64,000 bases of DNA from Candidatus Nomurabacteria bacterium RIFCSPLOWO2_01_FULL_42_17 (GTDB taxonomy: Bacteria; Patescibacteriota; Minisyncoccia; Phycocordibacterales; UBA9973), in NCBI GenBank assembly GCA_001785985.1, contig MFVE01000002.1, positions 28,600 to 92,599 of the forward strand, given 5' to 3'. The notes below the pieces were generated by a model. It had not been told where the DNA came from, did no database searches, and saw only the letters and a program-made list of their open reading frames with translations. Below, one piece after another: positions 419 to 62,894 of the stretch. Within the stretch, counting starts at the first letter, position 1; the number at the start of each line of letters is the position of its first letter. Made by a program: the position numbers and the translations under genes.

Positions 419-727
419 CTATGAGATAGCAGTCTGCCTTCTTTTCGCTAAATCTAATTCCCTTTTTGCTATTCTATCAGTCTTTTTTGCGAAAGCATGA
501 AGTAAAATAGCACAATTCTCATGAAAACAATATATTATCCTGATAGGAACTTTACCAGATATACGCAATTCAAAAAGTCCCCCACCTAAGCTTTTACTGT
601 AAGGCATTTCTATTTCATTTCCAACCATAATTAACATGTGCAAAACTTTTGAAACTTTACTTCTAGTAATTTCTTCCAAGCTCTCTAAGAATTTATCTAC
701 ATCAGTTGAAAAGTTTCTGATTTCCAT
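419..727 (-). CDS. RelE/ParE-superfamily toxin, HigB/Gp49-like (DUF891-type)
   Basis: A 102-aa protein with LFELRI..RIIYCF..ILLHAFAKKT signatures of phage Gp49-like HigB toxins. It sits upstream of the HTH partner, the usual higBA order. Confidence 0.6.
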   Translation of the reverse strand: MEIRNFSTDVDKFLESLEEITRSKVSKVLHMLIMVGNEIEMPYSKSLGGGLFELRISGKVPIRIIYCFHENCAILLHAFAKKTDRIAKRELDLAKRRQTAIS

Positions 728-732
728 CGTAA

Positions 733-1011
733 CTAAATACCTTTATTTCTATTTTTAATTTTTCCGTAAATCCAGCCAATCAGAGCCCCGTAAGCAAAAC
801 CATTTAATATGACAACAATAATCTGTCCTAATATTGGCATTGTTCCAAGTATCATGCCTGGTCCTGAAAGAACGTACATAGTTGTTGGCAGATAAAAGTA
901 GTTAATGGCATCAGCCAGATTACCATCAGTCCCTTTGAAAAGATAAATAGGAACCGAAATAATCCCACACATAAGACCTATCCACAACCAATATTTTGTT
1001 TTCATCTTCAC
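733..1011 (-). CDS. Small membrane protein, hypothetical
   Basis: A 92-aa ORF with two or three hydrophobic helices. Confidence 0.3.
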   Translation of the reverse strand: MKMKTKYWLWIGLMCGIISVPIYLFKGTDGNLADAINYFYLPTTMYVLSGPGMILGTMPILGQIIVVILNGFAYGALIGWIYGKIKNRNKGI

Positions 1012-4299: not shown

Positions 4300-4485
4300 A
4301 TGAGACACACAATAGAAAAATCTCCAAGTTCCTCGCCAGATCAACCAAGCCCAGAAGAAAAGATGGCAAACATTATACGCGCCAAACTTGCCCGAGGATT
4401 GACACTCACAGAGACAGAAGAAGCATTTCTAAGAGAACAAAAAAGAGAAAATTGGCGAGATGATAATCCTAGATACGAGCATTAA
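4300..4485 (+). CDS. Hypothetical small protein
   Basis: A 61-aa ORF, acidic and basic, with no recognisable domain. Confidence 0.2.
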   Translation: MRHTIEKSPSSSPDQPSPEEKMANIIRAKLARGLTLTETEEAFLREQKRENWRDDNPRYEH

Positions 4486-4535
4486 TTATATAAATACTAG
4501 AAAGGAAGTTAAATTGCTATGAGATTTTCTTTATT

Positions 4536-4568
4536 CACATTTACGCCATGGCTTAAATGTGTAAAGAG
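4536..4568. repeat. Left copy of a roughly 30-bp imperfect direct repeat (core ACGCCATGGCT) flanking the Cas2-like ORF
   Basis: TTTACGCCATGGCTTAAATGTGTAAAGA here compares with TATACGCCATGGCTGATATATGTAAAAA at 4976-5008. Confidence 0.6.
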
Positions 4569-4579
4569 GATTTTACAGA

Positions 4580-4954
4580 TTACTTGCCTGTAGTATACGA
4601 TCTTGCTAATTTGAACGTTTTTAATTTATCTTTTAAGCCAATAACTTTTATATACTCTAGAAATTCTTTTGGTAAAGTTGATGGACCAACCCAGACACTT
4701 TTTTGAATCATTATATAATCAAAATTTACTAATTGCCTACGAAACCAATCGCGCTCTTTTTTCTTATTTTGAGGAATATCATACATAACGATCAAATTCT
4801 TTGGTGCATCCTTTTTGAACTCTGATTCAAAAGTCAGATAATAGAATTTCCTTTTTCTGTACTCCTTCTTTATACGAGACTTCTGGCCACTTCCACTTAC
4901 TGGCAAGCCAAAAATATTTACTCTCATACCTTTATAGGAAAAAGTTCTGCTCAT
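4580..4954 (-). CDS. Cas2-like protein; orphan, no CRISPR array or other cas genes in the window
   Basis: The 124-aa protein has the segment NLIVMYDIPQNKKKERDWFRRQLVNFDYIMIQKSVWVG. This matches the Cas2 beta1-alpha1 pattern (LVLVxYDI...RRxLxKxLxxYGxRVQxSVF). It also carries a roughly 50-aa N-terminal extension. Confidence 0.35.
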   Translation of the reverse strand: MSRTFSYKGMRVNIFGLPVSGSGQKSRIKKEYRKRKFYYLTFESEFKKDAPKNLIVMYDIPQNKKKERDWFRRQLVNFDYIMIQKSVWVGPSTLPKEFLEYIKVIGLKDKLKTFKLARSYTTGK

Positions 4955-4975
4955 ATTATTATTTTACTACACAAT

Positions 4976-5008
4976 ACATATATACGCCATGGCTGATATA
5001 TGTAAAAA
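4976..5008. repeat. Right copy of the direct repeat flanking the Cas2-like ORF
   Basis: See the left copy at 4536-4568. The exact 11-bp core ACGCCATGGCT is shared, with similarity extending about 30 bp. Confidence 0.6.
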
Positions 5009-5010
5009 TA

Positions 5011-5340
5011 TTATTTTTTCTTCTTTAGAATCCACGAACCTATCAAAGTACCCATAATTGGTATAATGATTACTGGCCAGTATGAGGAATTAAGAATCTT
5101 GAACACAAATTTATAACTCACACAAATATCACCACCAGTTTGATAACCACATCGAGATGCGAGCATTAATCCTAAAATGTTAGTGTTAAAAATTAGACCG
5201 ACAATATAATTTATTGCTAATATAATCAGACCAATTGTCATCAACAAACATATCGCATATAACAAAAATAAAAACCAAAAAAGTGTCGTCGGAATCCGTG
5301 CTTTATATAAAGAATTACTATCTTTTTTATCTGGATTCAT
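5011..5340 (-). CDS. Membrane protein, hypothetical
   Basis: A 109-aa protein with three predicted TM helices. Confidence 0.35.
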   Translation of the reverse strand: MNPDKKDSNSLYKARIPTTLFWFLFLLYAICLLMTIGLIILAINYIVGLIFNTNILGLMLASRCGYQTGGDICVSYKFVFKILNSSYWPVIIIPIMGTLIGSWILKKKK

Positions 5341-6578: not shown

Positions 6579-7880
6579 ATGAAAAAACCAACTAATAAAA
6601 ACAGGATGCAAGATATTTCATCGCCCAAAGGAATGAGAGATTTGATGAATGAAGAATATTATTCTTTTCAAGGATTTTTTGAAAAAGCGCAGGAAGTGGC
6701 AGTGTATTATGGCTTTAAACCAATCGACACTCCGATCTTAGAACACGAAGAAATTTTTACCACGGGGATAGGCGAAGGAACAGATATTGTGGATAAAGAA
6801 ATGTACACGCTGAAGACCAAAGGCGGCGACCACTTGGCGCTCCGACCAGAGCACACCGCGCCACTCGCTCGCGCCTATGTCGAACACGGAATGCAAGCAC
6901 TCCCCCAGCCAGTAATGCTTTACCAATACGGTCCGATCTTTCGACATGACAAGCCTCAGCGCGGACGCTACAGGCAATTTTGGCAATTTGATTTGGATTC
7001 ACTAGGAAACGATAAAAGCATTATGGACGCGCTGGTGATCAAAGCTGGCATGAGCATTTTAGAAGAAGCTGGAGCTTCGAGCCTTTCGATCGATATCAAT
7101 TCCATCGGAGACAAAGAATGCCGAAATGGATACATCAGAGAGCTGACAAACTACTACAAAAAGCACATTGGCCAACTCCCGGGTATTGATCGAGAACGCC
7201 TGAAGACAAATCCGCTGCGCATCTTGGACTCCAAAGAAGAAAAGACAAAAGAAATAAACGAGGGCGCTCCAGACTCGATATCTTTCCTTTGCCCTTCTTG
7301 CAAAAAACACTTCAAAGAAGTCTTGGAATATTTAGAAGAAATGAATATTCAATACAATATAAACAAAAATTTAGTGCGGGGGCTTTCCTATTATACCCGC
7401 ACTGTTTTTGAGATAATGGAACAAGGAGGCGCTGAGGATGGCGGAGCGCTCGCGCTGGCTGGCGGCGGACGCTATGACTATCTAGCTCGCCATCTTGGAA
7501 GCAAAAAAGATGTGCCAGCAGTCGGGATTTCGATCGGAGTAGACAGAATAGTCGCCTCGGCTTGGTACAAGAAATTAACGCCGCGCATATTAAAAAAGCC
7601 GAAAATTTATTTCATCCAGCTCGGGTCTGAAGCAAAATTGAAAAGTTTGAATATAATTGAGATATTAAGGAAGGCGCATATCCCCATCGCCCAATCGCTT
7701 TCCAAGGATAGCCTAGGCTCGCAATTGGCCATCGCCGAGAAGCTGGCTATCCCTTACGCGCTCATCTTCGGAGTCAAAGAAGCCCTAGATAATTCAGTGA
7801 TAGTGCGAGATATGAGCAATCGATCCCAAGACACTGTGAAATTGCCGAAGCTTCTGGAATATTTGAAAGAACTAAAATAA
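6579..7880 (+). CDS. hisS: Histidyl-tRNA synthetase
   Basis: A class II aaRS with HisRS motifs (RPEHTAP, GGGRYDYL) and a C-terminal anticodon-binding domain. Confidence 0.9.
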   Translation: MKKPTNKNRMQDISSPKGMRDLMNEEYYSFQGFFEKAQEVAVYYGFKPIDTPILEHEEIFTTGIGEGTDIVDKEMYTLKTKGGDHLALRPEHTAPLARAYVEHGMQALPQPVMLYQYGPIFRHDKPQRGRYRQFWQFDLDSLGNDKSIMDALVIKAGMSILEEAGASSLSIDINSIGDKECRNGYIRELTNYYKKHIGQLPGIDRERLKTNPLRILDSKEEKTKEINEGAPDSISFLCPSCKKHFKEVLEYLEEMNIQYNINKNLVRGLSYYTRTVFEIMEQGGAEDGGALALAGGGRYDYLARHLGSKKDVPAVGISIGVDRIVASAWYKKLTPRILKKPKIYFIQLGSEAKLKSLNIIEILRKAHIPIAQSLSKDSLGSQLAIAEKLAIPYALIFGVKEALDNSVIVRDMSNRSQDTVKLPKLLEYLKELK

Positions 7881-16165: not shown

Positions 16166-16190
16166 TTGCGTTAGGCAAGACCTAACGCAA
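16166..16190. repeat. REP hairpin in inverted orientation at the 5' end of the RAYT gene
   Basis: The sequence is ttgcgttagg-caaga-cctaacgcaa. Confidence 0.8.
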
Positions 16191-16932: not shown

Positions 16933-16955
16933 TGCGTTAGGTCTTGCCTAACGCA
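16933..16955. repeat. Third REP hairpin, in the same orientation as the copy at 15468
   Basis: The sequence is tgcgttagg-tcttg-cctaacgca. Confidence 0.8.
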
Positions 16956-16959
16956 AAGT

Positions 16960-19215: not shown

Positions 19216-19287
19216 TCCGGGGTAGCTCAGCGGTAGAGCGATCGCCTGTTAAGCGATTGGTCGTAGGTTCGATCCCTACCCCCGGAG
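19216..19287 (+). tRNA. tRNA-Asn (anticodon GTT)
   Basis: Manual fold: a 7-bp acceptor stem (tccgggg/ccccgga), a canonical D arm, anticodon loop cuGUUaa, and a GGTTCGATCC T arm. Confidence 0.85.
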
Positions 19288-19306
19288 CCCCCGGTTATAA
19301 AAACAA

Positions 19307-19379
19307 GGGCCGTTAGCTCATCTGGTAGAGCACCTCATTTGCAATGAGGGGGTGGCAGGTTCGAGTCCTGTACGGTCCA
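19307..19379 (+). tRNA. tRNA-Ala (anticodon TGC)
   Basis: Manual fold: a G3:U70 pair in the acceptor stem, anticodon loop uuUGCaa, and a GGTTCGAGTCC T arm. Confidence 0.85.
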
Positions 19380-19408
19380 CAAAAATTTGCCTTTGGTGAA
19401 TTTTTTAT

Positions 19409-20428
19409 ATGAAAAAAAATCTAGAAACCTTAGAATTCATTTTGAAGAATTATAAAAATTTCAACGCTCGAGCCACCCGCGACGCGCTTTTGGCTTATTG
19501 GCGGCACTTAGAGAAAGGTGGGAAAATGTTCTGGGCGATGGCGGGAGCGATGTCTTCCGCCCAGCTCGGCATCACGCTGGCGCCCGCTATTCGAGAGGGC
19601 CTCATCCACGGCCTGTCCGTCACCGGCGCCAACCTGGAAGAATCGCTTTTTCGCCTAGTCGCGCACGATAGCTATAAAGATTTTCCAGATTATCGCTATT
19701 TTACCAAGGAGGATGACACAAAGATTCTAAAAAATAGAATGCGCCGAGTTACAGACACTAGCATTCCGGAAGATGAAGCATTCCGCGCGGTGGAAAGTCT
19801 AATTTTACCAGTTTGGGAAAAAGCAACCAAAGAAAAAACACGAAAATTCTGGCACGAATATTTTTATGATCTAATCCAAGCCATTGATAAAAAGAAACAT
19901 GAAGGGAAGGCCGAAGAATGCTGGCTCTTGGCGGCCGCTCTAAAAAACCTCCCGATAGTGGTGCCCGGCTATGAAGATTCTACTTTCGGAAATATTTTTG
20001 CTTCGCATGTAAAGCTGGGCGACGCGAGCGCGAACATCGCCAAAAGCGGCATCGAATATATGGGAGCATTTTACGACCAATATCAAAAGCTCTCGGAGGG
20101 CAAAGGTATCGGATTCTTCCAGATCGGCGGAGGCATCGCCGGAGACTTCCCTATCTGCGTCGTGCCATCCTTGAAATATGACATGGAGGTTTCCGCCAAA
20201 CCCTGGGCATATTTTTGCCAGATCTCAGACTCTACCACCTCGTATGGCTCGTATTCCGGCGCCACCCCGAACGAAAAAATAACCTGGGACAAATTGACCA
20301 AAGACACCCCCATGTTCGTCATCGAGTCAGACGCCACCATCGTCGCTCCGCTCATCTTGACTGCCCTCTTGGAATGCAAAGCAAACCCGAAAGAAGCAAA
20401 TAAATTGATAGAGAAATATACAGCTTAA
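19409..20428 (+). CDS. Deoxyhypusine synthase-like protein (DS family; homospermidine/deoxyhypusine synthase homolog)
   Basis: The segment AMSSAQLGITLAPAIREGLIHGLSVTGANLEESLF aligns with the DHS core (SGLRE...VTTAGGIEEDLIK). The gene is GC-rich relative to its surroundings. Confidence 0.65.
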   Translation: MKKNLETLEFILKNYKNFNARATRDALLAYWRHLEKGGKMFWAMAGAMSSAQLGITLAPAIREGLIHGLSVTGANLEESLFRLVAHDSYKDFPDYRYFTKEDDTKILKNRMRRVTDTSIPEDEAFRAVESLILPVWEKATKEKTRKFWHEYFYDLIQAIDKKKHEGKAEECWLLAAALKNLPIVVPGYEDSTFGNIFASHVKLGDASANIAKSGIEYMGAFYDQYQKLSEGKGIGFFQIGGGIAGDFPICVVPSLKYDMEVSAKPWAYFCQISDSTTSYGSYSGATPNEKITWDKLTKDTPMFVIESDATIVAPLILTALLECKANPKEANKLIEKYTA

Positions 20429-30012: not shown

Positions 30013-30050
30013 AAGTAGTTGAAGGTTATAAAGTTCATAAAGTTATAAAG
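30013..30050 (+). repeat. Dispersed AAGTT-ATAAAGTT tandem motif, copy a, directly upstream of the MFS start
   Basis: The sequence is aagtagttgaaggttataaagttcataaagttataaag. Confidence 0.7.
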
Positions 30051-30058
30051 AAAATACT

Positions 30059-31210
30059 TTGAATAAAAAAAGAAAAATAATATATTTAGTAGGTTTCATT
30101 TTTTCCCTATCGATCGCGCTGATGGCCTACATAAACTCGAGCTTCATCGCTTCTTTTATCGATGAAAAATCGGTGGGAACAGTCTACACTCTCGGATCCG
30201 TCGTTTCAATATTTGCGCTTCTCGTAGTCCCAAAGATTTTTAGGAAAGTGGGCGGGTATAAGTTTCTACTCTGGGCGATCGCCACAAATGCCCTCGCCAC
30301 AGCGCTTTTTGCCTTTGCCCAAAATGCTTGGAGCGCAATTGTGCTATTTACTATCATCTTCACTCTCAACATCCTGATATTTTTCGCCCTGGATGAACTT
30401 TTAAAAATAATTTCAAAAGATTCTTCAACTGGCAAAACCAGAGGAAGCTATCTGGCCCTCGCTAGCCTGGCTTGGATCATTGCCCAATTACTCCTCGGTA
30501 CAATTCTGGGCGAATCTTCCTTTCAAATGATCTATCTGACCAGTTTTGTGGTAATGCTATTATTTTTTAAAATTGTGCATGCATACCTCCGAGATATACC
30601 AGACCCGGAATATGACAAAACAAATACAAAAAAGTATCTCGGAGAATTTCTAAAAAACAAAAATCTATTTCGCGCGTATGTCTTGGCTCTCTTGCTACAA
30701 TTTTTCTACTGCTGGATGGTGATCTATACGCCGATATACCTTTCTTCCTACTTGGGCTTTTCTTGGAGCCAGATCGGTATAATTTTCGCCATCATGCTCT
30801 TGCCTTTTTCCATCATCCCCTTCCACTTGGGCAGATATTCGGATAAAATCGGCGAAAGAAAAATATTAATGTTCGGATTCGCCGTCGCCTCTGTTGCCAC
30901 TCTATCCCTCTTTTTTATAGGACAGCCGGAGGTATGGATATGGGCAGGACTGTTATTTCTCACCCGAATCGGGGCCGCCAGCATCGAAGTAGTGGGCGAT
31001 GCCTATTTTTTCAAACATATCAGGCCGGAAAATGAAGAATTTGTGGGAGTCTATCGTAGCGCCACTCCAGTCGCTTATATCTTCGGGCCGCTCTTTGCTT
31101 TTCTAGTTTTCATTTTCGTTCCGTCTTTTAATTTTCTCTACCTCGTACTCGGCGCTTTTCTGCTATACGGAATTTATCTCTCCTCCACTATTGCTAAAAG
31201 CGATATTTAA
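30059..31210 (+). CDS. MFS transporter
   Basis: A 383-aa protein with 12 predicted TM helices and a TTG start. Confidence 0.7.
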   Translation: MNKKRKIIYLVGFIFSLSIALMAYINSSFIASFIDEKSVGTVYTLGSVVSIFALLVVPKIFRKVGGYKFLLWAIATNALATALFAFAQNAWSAIVLFTIIFTLNILIFFALDELLKIISKDSSTGKTRGSYLALASLAWIIAQLLLGTILGESSFQMIYLTSFVVMLLFFKIVHAYLRDIPDPEYDKTNTKKYLGEFLKNKNLFRAYVLALLLQFFYCWMVIYTPIYLSSYLGFSWSQIGIIFAIMLLPFSIIPFHLGRYSDKIGERKILMFGFAVASVATLSLFFIGQPEVWIWAGLLFLTRIGAASIEVVGDAYFFKHIRPENEEFVGVYRSATPVAYIFGPLFAFLVFIFVPSFNFLYLVLGAFLLYGIYLSSTIAKSDI

Positions 31211-35128: not shown

Positions 35129-35165
35129 TTTACTTTATAACTTTATGAACTTACGAACTTTCTAC
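35129..35165 (-). repeat. Dispersed AAGTT-ATAAAGTT motif, copy b, between the cupredoxin stop and the dgkA start
   Basis: The reverse complement is gtagaaagttcgtaagttcataaagttataaagtaaa. Confidence 0.7.
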
Positions 35166-44028: not shown

Positions 44029-44066
44029 TAAGTTTATAAAGTTATAAAGTTGAAAGTTATAAAGTC
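44029..44066 (+). repeat. Dispersed AAGTT-ATAAAGTT motif, copy d
   Basis: The sequence is agtttataaagttataaagttgaaagttataaagtcaa. Confidence 0.7.
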
Positions 44067-55419: not shown

Positions 55420-56832
55420 TTATTTTATCGCCTCAAAACGCTTCCCGATTTCAAAAAGAGAACTCTCGCAAAAATAAGGCGCCATAAACTGAATAGAAAA
55501 TGGCAAACCGTCTTTTGATGTCCCCGATGGTAAAGCAATAGAAGGAACGCCAGTTAAATTTGCTGGCGCAGAAAAGATATCACACAAATACATCGCCACT
55601 GGATCATCTAATTTTTCTCCTAACTTAAAAGGAAGCACTGGTACAGTTGGAGTAAGAATATAATCAACCTTTTTAAAAGCATTAAAAATTTCTTCTCTTA
55701 TTTTTTCTCGCACGTTCAAAGCTTTATTATAATAAGCGTCGTAGTATCCATGAGATAGAACATAAGTACCAAGCAAAATTCTGCGACGAGCCTCTTTACC
55801 AAAACCACCTCCTCTGCTTTTCTTATACACATCCATCAAACTCTCTCCTTTCACACTATAGCCATAACGTATTCCATCAAAACGTGCCAAATTCGTAGAA
55901 ACTTCGGCAGGCATAATAATATAATAAACAGCTAAAGAATATTTACAATATGGAAGTTCTATATCTACAATTTCATATCCGGCTTTTTTAAATTTTCCTA
56001 AAGATTGCTTAAAATTTTCTTGAACTTCACTATCTACACCTTCTTTAAATAAATGCCAAGGAACACCAATCTTTTTACCACCTAAAACATGATTCCTTAA
56101 ATTATCTGGCACAGAAGTGCTATCTTCTTTATCATATCTAGATAAGAAATTAAATATTATCTCTGCATCTCTTACATTTTTACCAAAAGGTCCCACTTGA
56201 TCAAGTGAATTACCCATAGGAATAACTCCTTGTCTAGAGATTGCGCCATAAGTAGACCTCAACCCAACTAATCCACAAAATGCTGATGGCTCTCGTACAG
56301 AACCACAGGTTTCAGTGCCCAAAGCAGCCAAGGCCATACCTCCAGCGAGAGCTGCTGCCGAACCGCCAGAAGAACCTCCAGGCACTCTAGATAAATCAAT
56401 AGGATTACGTGTAACACCATAGGCTGATGTCTGTGTAGAAGAACCCATTGCAAATTCATCCATATTGGTCCTACCTAAAAAAACAGCTCCAACTTTTTTT
56501 AGATCTTTTATCACTGTAGCGTCATAGGAGGCCTTATAATTTTCCAAAATTTTTGAGCCTGCAGAAGATATTTTACCTTTAATTAAGATAATATCTTTTA
56601 TGGCAAATGGAATACCAGTCAACTCTGATGCTACCCCATTTTTAAACATTTCTTGAGCAATATCGGCTTGTTTTAATACATCATCATAAATTTCCAAATA
56701 TGCATTTATTTCAGGATTTTTTTCTTTAATAACTTTCAAATATTCCCCTGCTAATTCACGACAAGAGTATTTACCACTTTTAAAATCTTGATGCGCTTTT
56801 TCTATTGTTAAATTTTTTAAATCTATCTTCAT
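55420..56832 (-). CDS. gatA: Glutamyl/aspartyl-tRNA amidotransferase subunit A
   Basis: The amidase signature GGSSGGSAAALA is present, and gatC lies upstream. Confidence 0.9.
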   Translation of the reverse strand: MKIDLKNLTIEKAHQDFKSGKYSCRELAGEYLKVIKEKNPEINAYLEIYDDVLKQADIAQEMFKNGVASELTGIPFAIKDIILIKGKISSAGSKILENYKASYDATVIKDLKKVGAVFLGRTNMDEFAMGSSTQTSAYGVTRNPIDLSRVPGGSSGGSAAALAGGMALAALGTETCGSVREPSAFCGLVGLRSTYGAISRQGVIPMGNSLDQVGPFGKNVRDAEIIFNFLSRYDKEDSTSVPDNLRNHVLGGKKIGVPWHLFKEGVDSEVQENFKQSLGKFKKAGYEIVDIELPYCKYSLAVYYIIMPAEVSTNLARFDGIRYGYSVKGESLMDVYKKSRGGGFGKEARRRILLGTYVLSHGYYDAYYNKALNVREKIREEIFNAFKKVDYILTPTVPVLPFKLGEKLDDPVAMYLCDIFSAPANLTGVPSIALPSGTSKDGLPFSIQFMAPYFCESSLFEIGKRFEAIK

Positions 56833-57134
56833 AATATTTTTTTCACTTTCACAAAGCCATCCTGAGCGTCCGGAAACTGCCCGATAATCAGCTCCTTGGA
56901 AAATTCTCTAGGCTCCAACACATCCTCCCGCCAAATATTTGTGAGGCTATATTCCGCCTTTACATCATCTACTTTTACTCCCTCGATCTGCTTGACGTAC
57001 TCCAAAATACCCTCCATATCCTTCAACATGGCCTTCTTTTCATCTTCTCCCAGCTCGATTCTGGCTAGATTGGCTAAATTCTCGACGTCCTTGATATCCA
57101 TATGATAACAGTATACATCAACACTTCTATCCAA
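56829..57134 (-). CDS. gatC: Glutamyl/aspartyl-tRNA amidotransferase subunit C
   Basis: A 101-aa protein that overlaps the gatA start by 4 nt. Confidence 0.75.
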   Translation of the reverse strand: MDRSVDVYCYHMDIKDVENLANLARIELGEDEKKAMLKDMEGILEYVKQIEGVKVDDVKAEYSLTNIWREDVLEPREFSKELIIGQFPDAQDGFVKVKKIL

Positions 57135-58017
57135 TCAAAGCTTTGACTCGCTCTTCTACCGGCGGATGCGTAGCAAAAAGGCCCAAAAAGACTTTGGTTT
57201 TTCTGCCGAAACCCACCCCTTTTGGATCAGCGATGTAGAGATGCGCGATGGCATTCGATTGGCGCGCCATGGGTTTGCTATATTGAGAGATTTTACGCAG
57301 AGCATTTGCCAAACCTTCCGGATAGCGAGTGAGCAGAGCCCCAGAAGCATCTGCTAAAAATTCACGCTTTCTAGAGATAGCCAGTTGAATAAGTATTGCA
57401 AAAATCGGCGCTAAGATTGAAAGAATAATCCCCACAAGCATGAGTACCCCCGCGGCCTTATTATCGCTGTCTCTCCTGCCGAAAAATAAATGTCTGGTAA
57501 AAATGTCTGCGACGATAGTGACAAAGCCCACCAGCACGACAACTACGGTCGAGAGCAGCATGTCGCGATTGCCAATATGCGATAGCTCGTGCGCGATGAC
57601 GCCCTCTAATTCATTTTTATTCAAAATCGCCAAAAGCCCCGTAGTTGCGCAGACCACCGCGTGATTTTTATCTCGGCCAGTAGCAAAAGCGTTCGGCGCT
57701 TGATCTAACACGACGTATATTTTCGGCATTGGCAATCCCGCAGTGATAGAAAGATTTTCCACACTGGTATACAAGTCAAAATATTCTTCTCTCTTTGCTT
57801 CTTTTGCCCCAGAGAGCTTCAAGACGATCTTGTCCGAATACCAATAGGAAAAAAAATTCATCAAAACGCTAAAAATCACAAAGAAATACAATATATTCGG
57901 ATTGTTGTAATAAAAACTAAAAAACCAGCCGAAAAGAATTACCACCACAAAAAACACCGTCATGAGCATCCATGTTTTTGTGACATTTTTAGATTGATGC
58001 GTATAAAGCGTCGCCAT
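57127..58017 (-). CDS. htpX: Zinc metalloprotease HtpX (M48)
   Basis: It has four TM helices and an HELSHIGNRD (HExxH) motif. Confidence 0.85.
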   Translation of the reverse strand: MATLYTHQSKNVTKTWMLMTVFFVVVILFGWFFSFYYNNPNILYFFVIFSVLMNFFSYWYSDKIVLKLSGAKEAKREEYFDLYTSVENLSITAGLPMPKIYVVLDQAPNAFATGRDKNHAVVCATTGLLAILNKNELEGVIAHELSHIGNRDMLLSTVVVVLVGFVTIVADIFTRHLFFGRRDSDNKAAGVLMLVGIILSILAPIFAILIQLAISRKREFLADASGALLTRYPEGLANALRKISQYSKPMARQSNAIAHLYIADPKGVGFGRKTKVFLGLFATHPPVEERVKALIG

Positions 58018-61494: not shown

Positions 61495-61500
61495 GGTTTA

Positions 61501-61535
61501 GTGGAAAGTTATAAAGTTCATAAAGTTGAAAGTCA
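61501..61535 (+). repeat. Dispersed AAGTT-ATAAAGTT motif, copy f, between the secD stop and the secF start
   Basis: The sequence is gtggaaagttataaagttcataaagttgaaagtca. Confidence 0.7.
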
Positions 61536-62894
61536 TTTTGAAAAGCCGGAACTGAATAAAAATCGGGTTAATTTATTGCTCTTCTTAATGCCCAAAGCGA
61601 AAAGGAAAATTCGAGAAACGGTAATCGCCGAGAACATTGAAACCAAAACACCCAAGCCAAAAGTCAGCGCAAATCCCTTGATAAGTGGCGTGCCCAGCCA
61701 AAACAGAATAATAGAGGTGATGATACTGGAGGTGTTTGAATCCCGCACAGATGTCCAAGCTCTCTTGAAACCATCATGGATGCCATCGTGAATATTGTGT
61801 CCTTTTCTTATTTCTTCTTTCATTCTTTCGAAAATAAGCACATTCGCATCCACCGCCATTCCGAGAGATATGATAAATCCGCCGATACCGGCCGCGGTCA
61901 AAGTTACCGGCAGAATTTTGAAAATAGCTAGAAGGATCGCGGTGTAAAATGAGAGCGCCACGACTGCGATCAGTCCAGGCAATCGATACCAGACAATGAG
62001 GAAGATAGCCACCAATATGAATCCGATGACAGCTGCTTTCACTCCAGCCCGGACAGCCGACTCTCCGAGAGTGGCTCCGATAGTCTGAGTGGAGAGCAGG
62101 GTGATCGGCACCGGCAAAGCGCCTGAATTTAATCTGCCCACCAAGAGTTTCGCTTCCTTGGGAGTAAAGTCCCCCGAGATCACTGCCTGCCCGCCGGTGA
62201 TTTCTTCACGAACTATCGGAGTAGATACCGGCGCACCGTCTAAATAAATCGCTACTGTTTTGCCGATGCTGCTTCTGGTGATCTCTGCAAAAAGTTTTGT
62301 GCCCGTTTCATCAAATTGCAAACTTACTATCGGCTCGCGAGTATTTGGATCAAATTCTAAAGTCGCTCTCTTTAAATATCGGCCAGTAAGTTCGGTAGCA
62401 ATAAATTGAGGACCGATGTCTACATTTACCTTGCCATCTTTAATTGTCGCCTTTTGCGGAGCTCCCGTAGGTGCCTCTATCTTAAATTCCAAGACTGGAG
62501 TCTGCCCAATCATTTCCACCGCTTTTTTTACATCAGTCACTCCAGGCAAATCAACAATGAGCTGCTCGCCCCCACCGGAGATGATACTGCCATGCTGCAC
62601 CTGAACCACCGGCTCGGAAACTCCGAAAAGATTCACTCTGCGTTCTATCACATCCCGAAGTGCATCCATCGAACTTCCCACTTCATTTGCCGGGATAGCG
62701 CTGACATCAGCTTTGTAGATCAAATGACTACCCCCAGACAGATCCAAGCCCAAGCGAAAAGGAAATTTCTTCCAGAAAGCGCCTTGAGTCTCAAAATTTT
62801 TATTCAATTTGGGCTCGGTCTTAAAAACAAAAAAAGCTACCCCCGAGCCTAAAATTAAAATTATTAAAGCCAGTATAACTCTCTTTTTTAACAT
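61533..62894 (-). CDS. secD: Protein translocase subunit SecD
   Basis: It has a large periplasmic domain followed by a six-TM SecD/F core. Confidence 0.85.
   Translation of the reverse strand: MLKKRVILALIILILGSGVAFFVFKTEPKLNKNFETQGAFWKKFPFRLGLDLSGGSHLIYKADVSAIPANEVGSSMDALRDVIERRVNLFGVSEPVVQVQHGSIISGGGEQLIVDLPGVTDVKKAVEMIGQTPVLEFKIEAPTGAPQKATIKDGKVNVDIGPQFIATELTGRYLKRATLEFDPNTREPIVSLQFDETGTKLFAEITRSSIGKTVAIYLDGAPVSTPIVREEITGGQAVISGDFTPKEAKLLVGRLNSGALPVPITLLSTQTIGATLGESAVRAGVKAAVIGFILVAIFLIVWYRLPGLIAVVALSFYTAILLAIFKILPVTLTAAGIGGFIISLGMAVDANVLIFERMKEEIRKGHNIHDGIHDGFKRAWTSVRDSNTSSIITSIILFWLGTPLIKGFALTFGLGVLVSMFSAITVSRIFLFALGIKKSNKLTRFLFSSGFSK

Follow-up and report, generated by a model that had tools for sequence, protein, structure and literature searches.

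Why does a gene with a Cas2 signature sit between two copies of a ~30-bp repeat, next to dnaE and pth and with no CRISPR-like array around it? The question is raised by the window analyzed here, a stretch of 64,000 nucleotides from Candidatus Nomurabacteria bacterium RIFCSPLOWO2_01_FULL_42_17 (contig MFVE01000002.1, positions 28,600 to 92,599), to which all coordinates without a locus label refer. An earlier description made from the letters of this DNA (hereafter, the sequence-only reading) had placed an orphan Cas2-like gene on a cassette at positions 4536-5008, and had considered a toxin or a selfish cassette inserted by site-specific recombination. Our comparative analyses show positions 4533-5008 to be a copy of a self-contained unit, conserved in Parcubacteria/Paceibacterota, in which a short protein is encoded between two palindromes. 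We put at roughly 0.45 the probability that this protein recognizes its own palindromes and represses its own leaderless promoter, in a layout that would resemble that of repetitive extragenic palindromes (REPs) and REP-associated tyrosine transposases (RAYTs) but with a different protein fold. No description of the protein family or of its palindromes was found in the literature searched.

The unit, its palindromes and its protein

As the sequence-only reading had it, a single open reading frame (ORF; 124 aa, Table 1) lies between the two repeats, which span 4533-4565 and 4974-5006 (441 nt from start to start) and are 82% identical across 33 nt. The string given for the second repeat does end at 5008 as claimed, while the one for the first starts at 4540 and not at 4536. 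The exact 11-bp core is present in both (ACGCCATGGCT, 4543-4553 and 4984-4994); what had been overlooked is that either repeat as a whole is a palindrome of ~30 bp with the center CCA/TGG (CACATTTAcGCCATGGCtTAAATGTG and TACATATATacGCCATGGCtgATATATGTA; the slash marks the center of symmetry). Taken by itself, the 11-mer has no statistical significance in 64 kb, since 14 of 100 shuffled sequences held at least two matches with at most one mismatch. A position weight matrix (PWM) trained on ~114 homologous palindromes found exactly two matches in the window (scores in Table 1), against a maximum of 11.2 bits in a null of 0.93 million shuffled positions. In the sense of the gene, the upstream palindrome, which starts 3 nt past the stop codon (5011-5013) of a preceding 109-aa membrane-protein ORF, is followed by 8 nt, the hexamer TAAAAT, 6 nt and the ATG, its center being ~35 nt before the latter. 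The downstream palindrome lies 15 nt beyond the stop codon (center ~31 nt beyond the first base after the stop) and separates the gene from the convergent orf61/dnaE. The unit spans ~475 bp.

Homologous loci were collected by a scan of the GTDB species representatives, which gave 321 loci, 80 of them kept (nearly all labeled Parcubacteria, Paceibacterota, Nomurabacteria or Zambryskibacteria; the labels of these and of all further loci below begin with L), and six relatives with Pfam-annotated neighborhoods were fetched via exact protein look-up. The order that recurs in them is a palindrome of 30-32 bp, ~7 nt, TATAAT, 6-9 nt, the ATG of an ORF of ~125 aa, and a second palindrome at the stop codon or overlapping it. 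The palindromes lie at -30 to -45 from the ATG and at +360 to +430 in ~80 of 89 copies, and the PWM recovered 154 of the ~164 expected around 82 homologous genes (~94% of units). Of 74 units, 70 have a match to at least five of the six positions of TATAAT 21-24 nt away from the center of their upstream palindrome, and 63 of these 70 have the ATG 6-9 nt after the hexamer. From this TATAAT-ATG spacing a leaderless transcript is predicted, with the palindrome centered ~35 bp upstream of its start, and the spacing of TAAAAT in the window likewise predicts a leaderless or near-leaderless mRNA. A claim of an extended -10 element was dropped, the TG being at its canonical position in only 9 units. 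Moreover, the arms of the two palindromes are more alike within a unit than between units (6.84 vs 4.74 +/- 0.22 of 12 positions). The sequence-only reading had named as evidence against itself a gene that stands without repeats in a conserved operon of relatives; we found that the positions of the gene are indeed conserved, yet the repeats are always present.

The half-site consensus of the palindromes is ATnTnnGCnA/TnGCnnAnAT, with six invariant positions per half-site (1, 3, 4, 7, 9 and 10, counted outward from the center). Positions 2, 8 and 11-15 vary yet stay complementary, position 8 showing all four Watson-Crick pairs. In 74 distinct upstream copies, 85.4% of the cells were paired, a share that none of 500 shuffles reached (72.4% when shuffled), double-sided changes occurred in 10 of 14 pairs, and the slid registers that served as controls gave 24-56%. 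These patterns indicate that both the palindromic symmetry and the six core positions are under selection. Mismatches of the G:U (G:T) type, ~30 as compared with 24 of the A:C type and 98 others, are not enriched and thus give no RNA-wobble signal; nor did Rfam return a CRISPR direct-repeat (CRISPR-DR) or other RNA family match for the palindromes. One asymmetry recurs, the gene-sense 5' half often reading TCAGC for TACGC, especially in downstream copies. Folded as single-stranded DNA, the copies reach -4.8 to -19.9 kcal/mol (for the downstream palindrome of the window -9.5 kcal/mol, z = -6.0). At four orthologous dnaE/pth loci (the window, L086, L088 and L089) the palindromes are kept as well as the coding sequence and the outside flanks are unalignable; hence, the palindromes appear to be under purifying selection among orthologues with saturated synonymous sites.

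The Cas2 beta1-alpha1 signature that had been noticed in the ORF (LIVMYDIP...RDWFRRQLVNFDYIMIQKSVWVG) is borne out by family models above their thresholds. Pfam PaaX_M (PF20803) matches residues 55-116 at 3.1e-13 (50.1 bits, cut-off 24), Pfam CRISPR_Cas2 (PF09827) matches at 9.5e-7 (29.4 bits, cut-off 23.8) and NCBIfam cas2 TIGR01573 at 28 bits (cut-off 24.5). The AlphaFold2 model of the protein, for which 45 homologues were the input, has a predicted local distance difference test score (pLDDT) of 71 overall and of 80-87 for residues 50-120, and the best PDB matches in Foldseek are Cas2 chains (probability 0.99, with weak E-values of ~1e-2). Most Cas2 models align over beta1-alpha1-beta2 only, a sequence search against solved structures gave marginal Cas2 matches (E = 0.07-0.4), and in the defense databases Cas2 models were the sole matches, over residues 54-90 only. 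D59 of the MYDIP motif, the counterpart of the metal-binding Asp with which beta1 of Cas2 ends, does not vary among the 45 family members or in an 18-sequence superfamily alignment, where R68, R72, S86-V87-W88 and G90 are invariant too. Y1_Tnp (PF01797) did not match, and no His is among the residues invariant in the 45 family members.

The N-terminal winged helix of PaaX (PF07848) found no match in the window protein, and PaaX_C is absent, the protein ending ~5 residues past the Cas2-like domain (TIGR02277, 13.8 bits against a cut-off of 264). There is no paa operon context at the window locus, where the gene lies among housekeeping genes, dnaE and pth included. When 1.84 billion representatives were searched with a profile, 2001 clusters were found at E <= 1e-3, of which the 124-aa form makes up a handful; the nearest relatives have 157-170 aa, and in the long relatives there is one more N-terminal helix, as well as an insert of ~37 residues between the YKGxxVNxFGLP motif and the Cas2-like domain. 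Since this insert is winged-helix-like (weak, recurrent matches to HTH_45, WH_AprA, Mrr_N and PaaX-N in 7 of 10 proteins tested), the basic residues 1-50 of the window protein (YKGxxVNxFGLP...RIKKxxRKRxFY, with the basic stretch KSRIKKEYRKRKFYY left), which had been taken for an unusual N-terminal extension of ~50 aa, are the stump of a winged-helix domain. The window subfamily is thus a short PaaX-like protein (winged helix plus Cas2 fold) that has lost helix 1, the recognition helix and the wing and has kept a lysine/arginine-rich N-terminal segment and an intact Cas2-fold domain; it belongs to a large family of short PaaX-like proteins of the candidate phyla radiation (CPR). We detected 1311 homologues of ~125 aa at 65-87% identity, which their sources name "Cas2" or "PaaX"; neither database name, "CRISPR-associated endonuclease Cas2" or "transcriptional regulator PaaX", fits the family. 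The ratio of non-synonymous to synonymous substitution (dN/dS), determined for the window copy and three dnaE/pth orthologues, is 0.08-0.14 at a dS of ~0.9-1.7, which points to strong purifying selection on the protein.

Distant paralogues with a winged helix and a Cas2-like domain (160-193 aa) are accompanied by another class of palindromes, which are perfect, 30-38 bp long and have a CACGG/CCGTG core. Therefore, to be bracketed by a palindrome of its own is a property of the gene superfamily. Palindromes of this class were seen in L045 at 19275-19933 (on both sides of the gene, e.g., GTATACTATACTCACGG/CCGTGAGTATAGTATAC), in L013 at 7352-7381 and in L115 at ~925.

Genomic sites, solo palindromes and cargo

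In ~80 loci the unit lies between housekeeping genes, at several recurrent sites and many further ones (Table 1). It points in the same direction as the upstream gene in 62 of 78 cases, the center of its upstream palindrome lies a median of 46 nt past the stop codon of that gene, and the orientation of the gene is constant at each site. Three metagenome-assembled genomes (MFWB01, MFUG01 and JACPXJ01) carry 3-4 copies at different sites. From site to site the neighboring ORFs belong to different clusters, i.e., there is no conserved partner gene, and no recombinase was present among the neighbors in the six Pfam-annotated contexts. The orphan status claimed for the gene agrees with our searches, which found no CRISPR-like array in the 64-kb window and no Cas1 or other cas Pfam within ~4-5 kb in the six annotated relatives, the search for Cas1 not being exhaustive. 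Given these results and the lack of a CRISPR-DR match in Rfam, a CRISPR link was rejected.

Comparison of loci shows that an intergenic site can be occupied by the unit in one genome and empty in another. Four loci have an empty folD-PAP2 site (L072, L075, L076 and L080), and the htpX-gatC junction lacks the unit in L009, L035, L036, L043, L047, L063 and in this window, where the two genes stand 29 nt apart with no palindrome between them. Empty sites are short gaps without a palindrome, with the exception of L063, which holds one solo palindrome with all six invariant positions. The unit copy at dnaE/pth is an old one: the same site is occupied in relatives whose proteins are 77-79% identical (dS ~0.9-1.7), and a recent insertion there is ruled out by these orthologues. 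Hence, of the proposed cassette there remains a discrete unit found at varied sites, with empty sites and solos, and not a recent, local insertion between dnaE and pth.

In a neighbor-joining tree the copies cluster partly by site, with several lineages sharing one site; built on ~120 residues, the tree is too noisy to separate ancient paralogy from mobility. As copies within a genome are mostly just 57-70% identical, no recent bursts are seen. In the pair L019/L025, both members of which come from one genome, an identity of ~95% starts at codon 6 and runs as far as the outer edge of the downstream palindrome. This pair was rejected as proof of transposition; with upstream palindromes that differ, it is best explained by gene conversion that reached no further than the homology did. 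The outer flanks of units share no more than random pairings do (4.35 vs 4.31 +/- 0.12), which gives no sign of a target-site duplication, and no conserved flanking tag was found at the unit ends.

Palindromes also occur without the gene. Public metagenome contigs were searched with the pattern ATNTACGCYATRGCGTANAT, and at least 120 stretches were found. These pattern-anchored loci (0.65 Mb) hold 54 unit-associated palindromes and 115 others, and the gene-anchored GTDB loci (1.22 Mb) hold 12 non-unit palindromes; from both samples we roughly estimate a few units and about twice as many solos per genome, with ~10-20 palindromes per genome as an estimate from contigs. The solos are almost all intergenic and centered 10-40 nt past a stop codon, often between convergent genes or in short tandem gaps; they show no TATAAT geometry, and canonical GC-rich terminators often adjoin them (L090, L115, L132 and L151). 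A minority of palindromes form doublets 43-109 nt apart (L099, L133, L136 and L157). A plain intrinsic terminator was rejected as the identity of the palindrome, given the conserved core, the lack of a consistent T-run and the canonical terminators beside solos. In L001, a perfect 20-nt family palindrome (ATCTACGCCATGGCGTAGAT, ~789-808) lies inside a called DHFR ORF (508-1011, minus strand).

The Cas2-like gene is bracketed by ~90% of palindrome pairs, and other genes by some pairs. A 207-aa protein without a Pfam match (X207) is encoded between family palindromes in L075 (9161-9784), upstream of a Cas2-like unit, and in L040 (539-1162), downstream of one; like a cargo cassette, it is found at two sites and on either side of the unit. 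Also bracketed are an S51 peptidase (L009), a HAD hydrolase (L047) and a 402-aa ORF (c137, in L055), and the palindromes on both sides of cargo can be near-identical (32 of 40 positions in L055, 30 of 40 in L040). Tandem Cys-rich genes of ~600 aa are punctuated by family palindromes in L143 (2639-7682), L147 (377-5825) and L041 (3591-4874), and a further locus of the Cys-rich family (~430-655 aa) is L017 10459-12201; the family, once found directly downstream of a Cas2-like unit, has no Pfam match, an N-terminal CxxC and often CEKCYQQEVY at the C-terminus. Taken together, the solos after stop codons, the doublets and the bracketed accessory genes indicate that the palindrome is a low-copy, dispersed extragenic family.

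A phage origin was rejected, as 2.9 million contigs of IMG/VR gave one palindrome match and PHROG gave no match. The IMG/VR match (L090 1248-1267; IMGVR_UViG_3300008090_000010, 130 kb) is a solo between two ORFs by a canonical terminator, and the contig may be a misclassified CPR fragment.

Table 1. Coordinates of the unit and of other features in the window, and sites at which the unit recurs (arrows, direction of genes)
Feature	Position or occurrence	Strand	Basis or remark
Cas2-fold ORF, 124 aa	4580..4954	minus	ORF call; family, structure and homologue searches
Start codon (ATG) of Cas2-fold ORF	4954-4952	minus	
Stop codon of Cas2-fold ORF	4580-4582	minus	
Upstream palindrome, gene-sense TTTTTACATATATCAGCCATGGCGTATATATGTA	4975..5008	minus	center between 4989/4990; PWM 33.5 bits
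Predicted -10 hexamer TAAAAT	4961..4966	minus	read from sequence; prediction only
Downstream palindrome, gene-sense TTTACACATTTAAGCCATGGCGTAAATGTGAAT	4533..4565	minus	center between 4548/4549; PWM 34.9 bits
gatC	56832-57101	minus	empty htpX-gatC site
htpX	57130-58017	minus	empty htpX-gatC site
ORF with HUH motif, 231 aa	15483..16178	minus	Pfam Y1_Tnp (IS200-like), 8.1e-10
Hairpin repeat TGCGTTAGGTCTTGCCTAACGCAA	15468-15491, 16167-16190, 16933-16956		first two copies flank the 231-aa ORF
rpsG > unit > fusA	~25 loci		
pth > unit < dnaE	window, L045, L055, L071, L086-L089		
argS > unit	recurrent		
folD > unit > PAP2 phosphatase	recurrent		
htpX > unit > gatC	recurrent		
c5 > unit < c6	recurrent		sixth site; c5 and c6, neighbor-gene clusters
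Further unit sites	many		

Possible roles of the protein and its palindromes

Because ~90% of palindrome pairs bracket the Cas2-like gene, palindrome arms are more alike within than between units, and the distant winged-helix paralogues have a palindrome class of their own, we infer that the protein and the site are cognate. In the reading that we favor, a dimer of the protein would recognize the palindrome as duplex DNA or as an extruded hairpin, and a dimer on the upstream copy, ~35 bp before the start of the leaderless transcript, would repress the promoter of the unit itself. The downstream copy could serve as another binding site, by which the unit is closed or insulated, and the solo copies could be further binding sites or the footprints of lost units. 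Such an arrangement recalls the REP/RAYT systems (PMC3116915, PMC3337134, PMC5581495) in that a small protein gene lies between copies of a ~30-bp palindrome, which is dispersed extragenically near gene 3' ends as singlets and doublets, in that each protein lineage has its own palindrome variant, and in that the genes are largely vertical. Unlike those systems, the protein has a Cas2/PaaX_M fold without HUH/Tyr motifs, the palindromes lack a GTAG/CGTC tag and number an estimated ~10-20 per genome rather than hundreds, the upstream palindrome is accompanied at a fixed distance by a built-in promoter, and a genome has several copies of the gene, whereas a RAYT typically has no second copy in its genome (PMC5581495). 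With PaaX regulators (PF07848 + PF20803 + PF08223) the protein shares the central Cas2-like PaaX_M as its best family match and nearest longer relatives with an N-terminal winged helix, and the predicted operator-over-promoter geometry would suit autoregulation; it differs from them in its mere 124 aa, in the deleted recognition helix and wing, in the lack of PaaX_C and of paa genes nearby, and in palindromes that stand on both sides of the gene and are dispersed elsewhere.

Several observations weigh against this reading. The recognition helix and the wing, which are the usual readers of a palindromic operator, are lost in the subfamily, and the N-terminal third of the AlphaFold2 model is of low confidence (pLDDT ~50). 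Full-length paralogues or another host protein might read the palindromes. Moreover, positions 11-15 are symmetric with free base identity, a feature more in keeping with a hairpin or cruciform than with a classical operator. Finally, solos outnumber the palindromes of units (115 vs 54 in the pattern-anchored metagenome sample), and since they stand at gene 3' ends, autoregulation cannot be their role.

Possibly, though in our view improbably, the unit is a mobile, hairpin-ended cassette. Its Cas2-fold protein would then be a nuclease ("transposase") that cuts and joins, or an essential specificity factor, acting at palindrome hairpins or cruciforms, and would move its own gene, the solos and the cargo by analogy with TnpA of IS200/IS605 or with RAYTs on REPs/REPINs. 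Such a protein would account for covariation that keeps pairing, and not base identity, out to position 15, for hairpins that are stable as single-stranded DNA, for sites that host different protein lineages or are empty, for solos and doublets that recall REP singlets and REPIN doublets, and for cargo between near-identical palindromes. The beta1 Asp is invariant, nuclease activity is reported for Cas2 proteins (PMC6452270), and a Y1 transposase gene with its own hairpins in the same window suggests that such a lifestyle is present in this genome. As in IS200/IS605 elements, a small gene (125-230 aa) lies between two subterminal hairpins, with neither classical terminal inverted repeats nor a target duplication. 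However, the protein is not a Y1 HUH enzyme (no HUH/Tyr motif, no Y1_Tnp match), the hairpins are near-identical perfect palindromes, and no target-site duplication or conserved flanking tag was found. Evidence of recent transposition is likewise lacking, since within-genome copies show no bursts, the sole near-identical pair resembles gene conversion, positions have been kept over long divergence, and the viral contigs gave a single match.

Tyrosine-recombinase core sites consist in general of two inverted arms around a 6-bp center. The palindromes, with arms of 12-13 bp around a 6-bp CYATRG center (30-32 bp in all), fit this layout and may be core sites of a host Xer-like recombinase, the Cas2-like gene being the commonest cassette of pdif- or integron-like modules or an accessory factor. 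This would agree with the varied single-gene modules (X207 in L075/L040, HAD in L047, c137 in L055, Cys-rich genes in L143/L147) and with the solo and empty sites, and pdif/Xer and integron cassettes are themselves single-gene modules with varied cargo between imperfect palindromes of ~28-32 bp. We nevertheless regard it as quite improbable, given that no recombinase is linked in the six annotated contexts, that one gene family occupies ~90% of the modules, that the symmetric center confers no directionality although the gene orientation is constant per site, and that a by-eye comparison, made without a formal test, showed no similarity to the dif consensus. The site-specific recombination proposed in the sequence-only reading is possible, but neither a linked recombinase nor a target-site duplication speaks for it.

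That the palindromes act in RNA seems very doubtful. They would then be hairpins at transcript 3' ends or between cistrons, and the protein a hairpin RNase or RNA-binder that sets the ends or the stability of mRNAs, its own included. The position of solos 10-40 nt past stop codons, often between convergent genes, is what such an element would require, some solos stand between cistrons right before a ribosome-binding site (L147, L143), the downstream copy would sit in the gene's own 3' UTR, and Cas2/VapD-family proteins are known RNases (PMC6452270). On the other hand, G:U-type mismatches are not enriched over the A:C type, position 2 still covaries where a loop would be expected, the upstream copy lies outside the predicted leaderless transcript, canonical terminators often adjoin solos, and Rfam gave no match. 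A stand-alone Cas2/VapD-like toxin, i.e., an addiction or abortive-infection gene, has the least support among the rivals, and we consider it most improbable. The fold with its conserved Asp and the membership of Cas2 in the VapD interferase family (PMC6452270) would allow it; however, neighbors differ from site to site with no conserved partner, the gene adjoins housekeeping genes in several copies per tiny genome under strong purifying selection (dN/dS 0.08-0.14), and the defense-database matches are those to Cas2 models. The toxin suggested in the sequence-only reading is thus not upheld. As for Cas2 of CRISPR systems, the family shares with it the YDI(P) beta1 motif with its Asp, a Q-SVW/F beta2-beta3 motif and the association with ~30-bp palindromic repeats, but no Cas1, array or cas genes were found, the two repeats enclose the gene, an extra N-terminal segment is present, and the unit stands at housekeeping loci in organisms that are mostly without CRISPR.

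A wider proposition, that the Cas2-fold family is the cognate binding factor or nuclease of dispersed 30-bp palindromes and forms with them an unrecognized, hairpin-bounded class of CPR cassettes, we consider unlikely; it would make the family a non-HUH counterpart of REP/RAYT and the first Cas2 relative with ties to palindromes of a specific sequence, which would bear on how Cas2 and repeats met. If protein and palindrome are cognate, CPR bacteria, whose genomes are tiny and in which few mobile elements and regulators are recognized, would possess a dedicated palindrome/protein system in several copies near rpsG-fusA, dnaE, argS and gatC, and the REP/RAYT principle would extend to another fold. 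There would then be a natural Cas2-fold protein tied to ~30-bp palindromic repeats outside CRISPR; a systematic mis-annotation that inflates the counts of "orphan Cas2" in CPR genomes would also be corrected. As the unit is small, the hypotheses of binding and autoregulation are directly testable.

Other features of the window and of related loci

Approximately 11 kb from the unit, the 231-aa ORF listed in Table 1 carries the HUH motif YCLMPNHFHIL and is flanked by copies of its hairpin repeat. It is a genuine RAYT/IS200-like gene between its own palindromes.

A conserved TTGCAA-N17-TATATT promoter lies upstream of fusA (L001 4440-4506 and L002 4800-4868), followed by a hairpin and T-run (AGCGCxxxxGCGCTTTTTTT) that ends at the fusA ATG and looks attenuator- or leader-like. 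In the window, a GC-rich hairpin, CCCTCTCCTTTCCAGGAGAGGG, occurs in four terminator-like and unusually similar copies (5907, 63336, 63386 and 63781). Clusters of a AAGTTATAAAGTTCATAAAGTT-type motif stand at 30016-30061, 44030-44060 and 61499-61536, and in reverse at 35139, 43072 and 44125; found in both orientations, they may be a regulatory or origin-related box. Finally, a candidate gene, a 61-aa ORF without a family match (4300-4485, plus strand), lies between dnaE and the downstream palindrome, and a 59-aa ORF was called at the equivalent position of L088.

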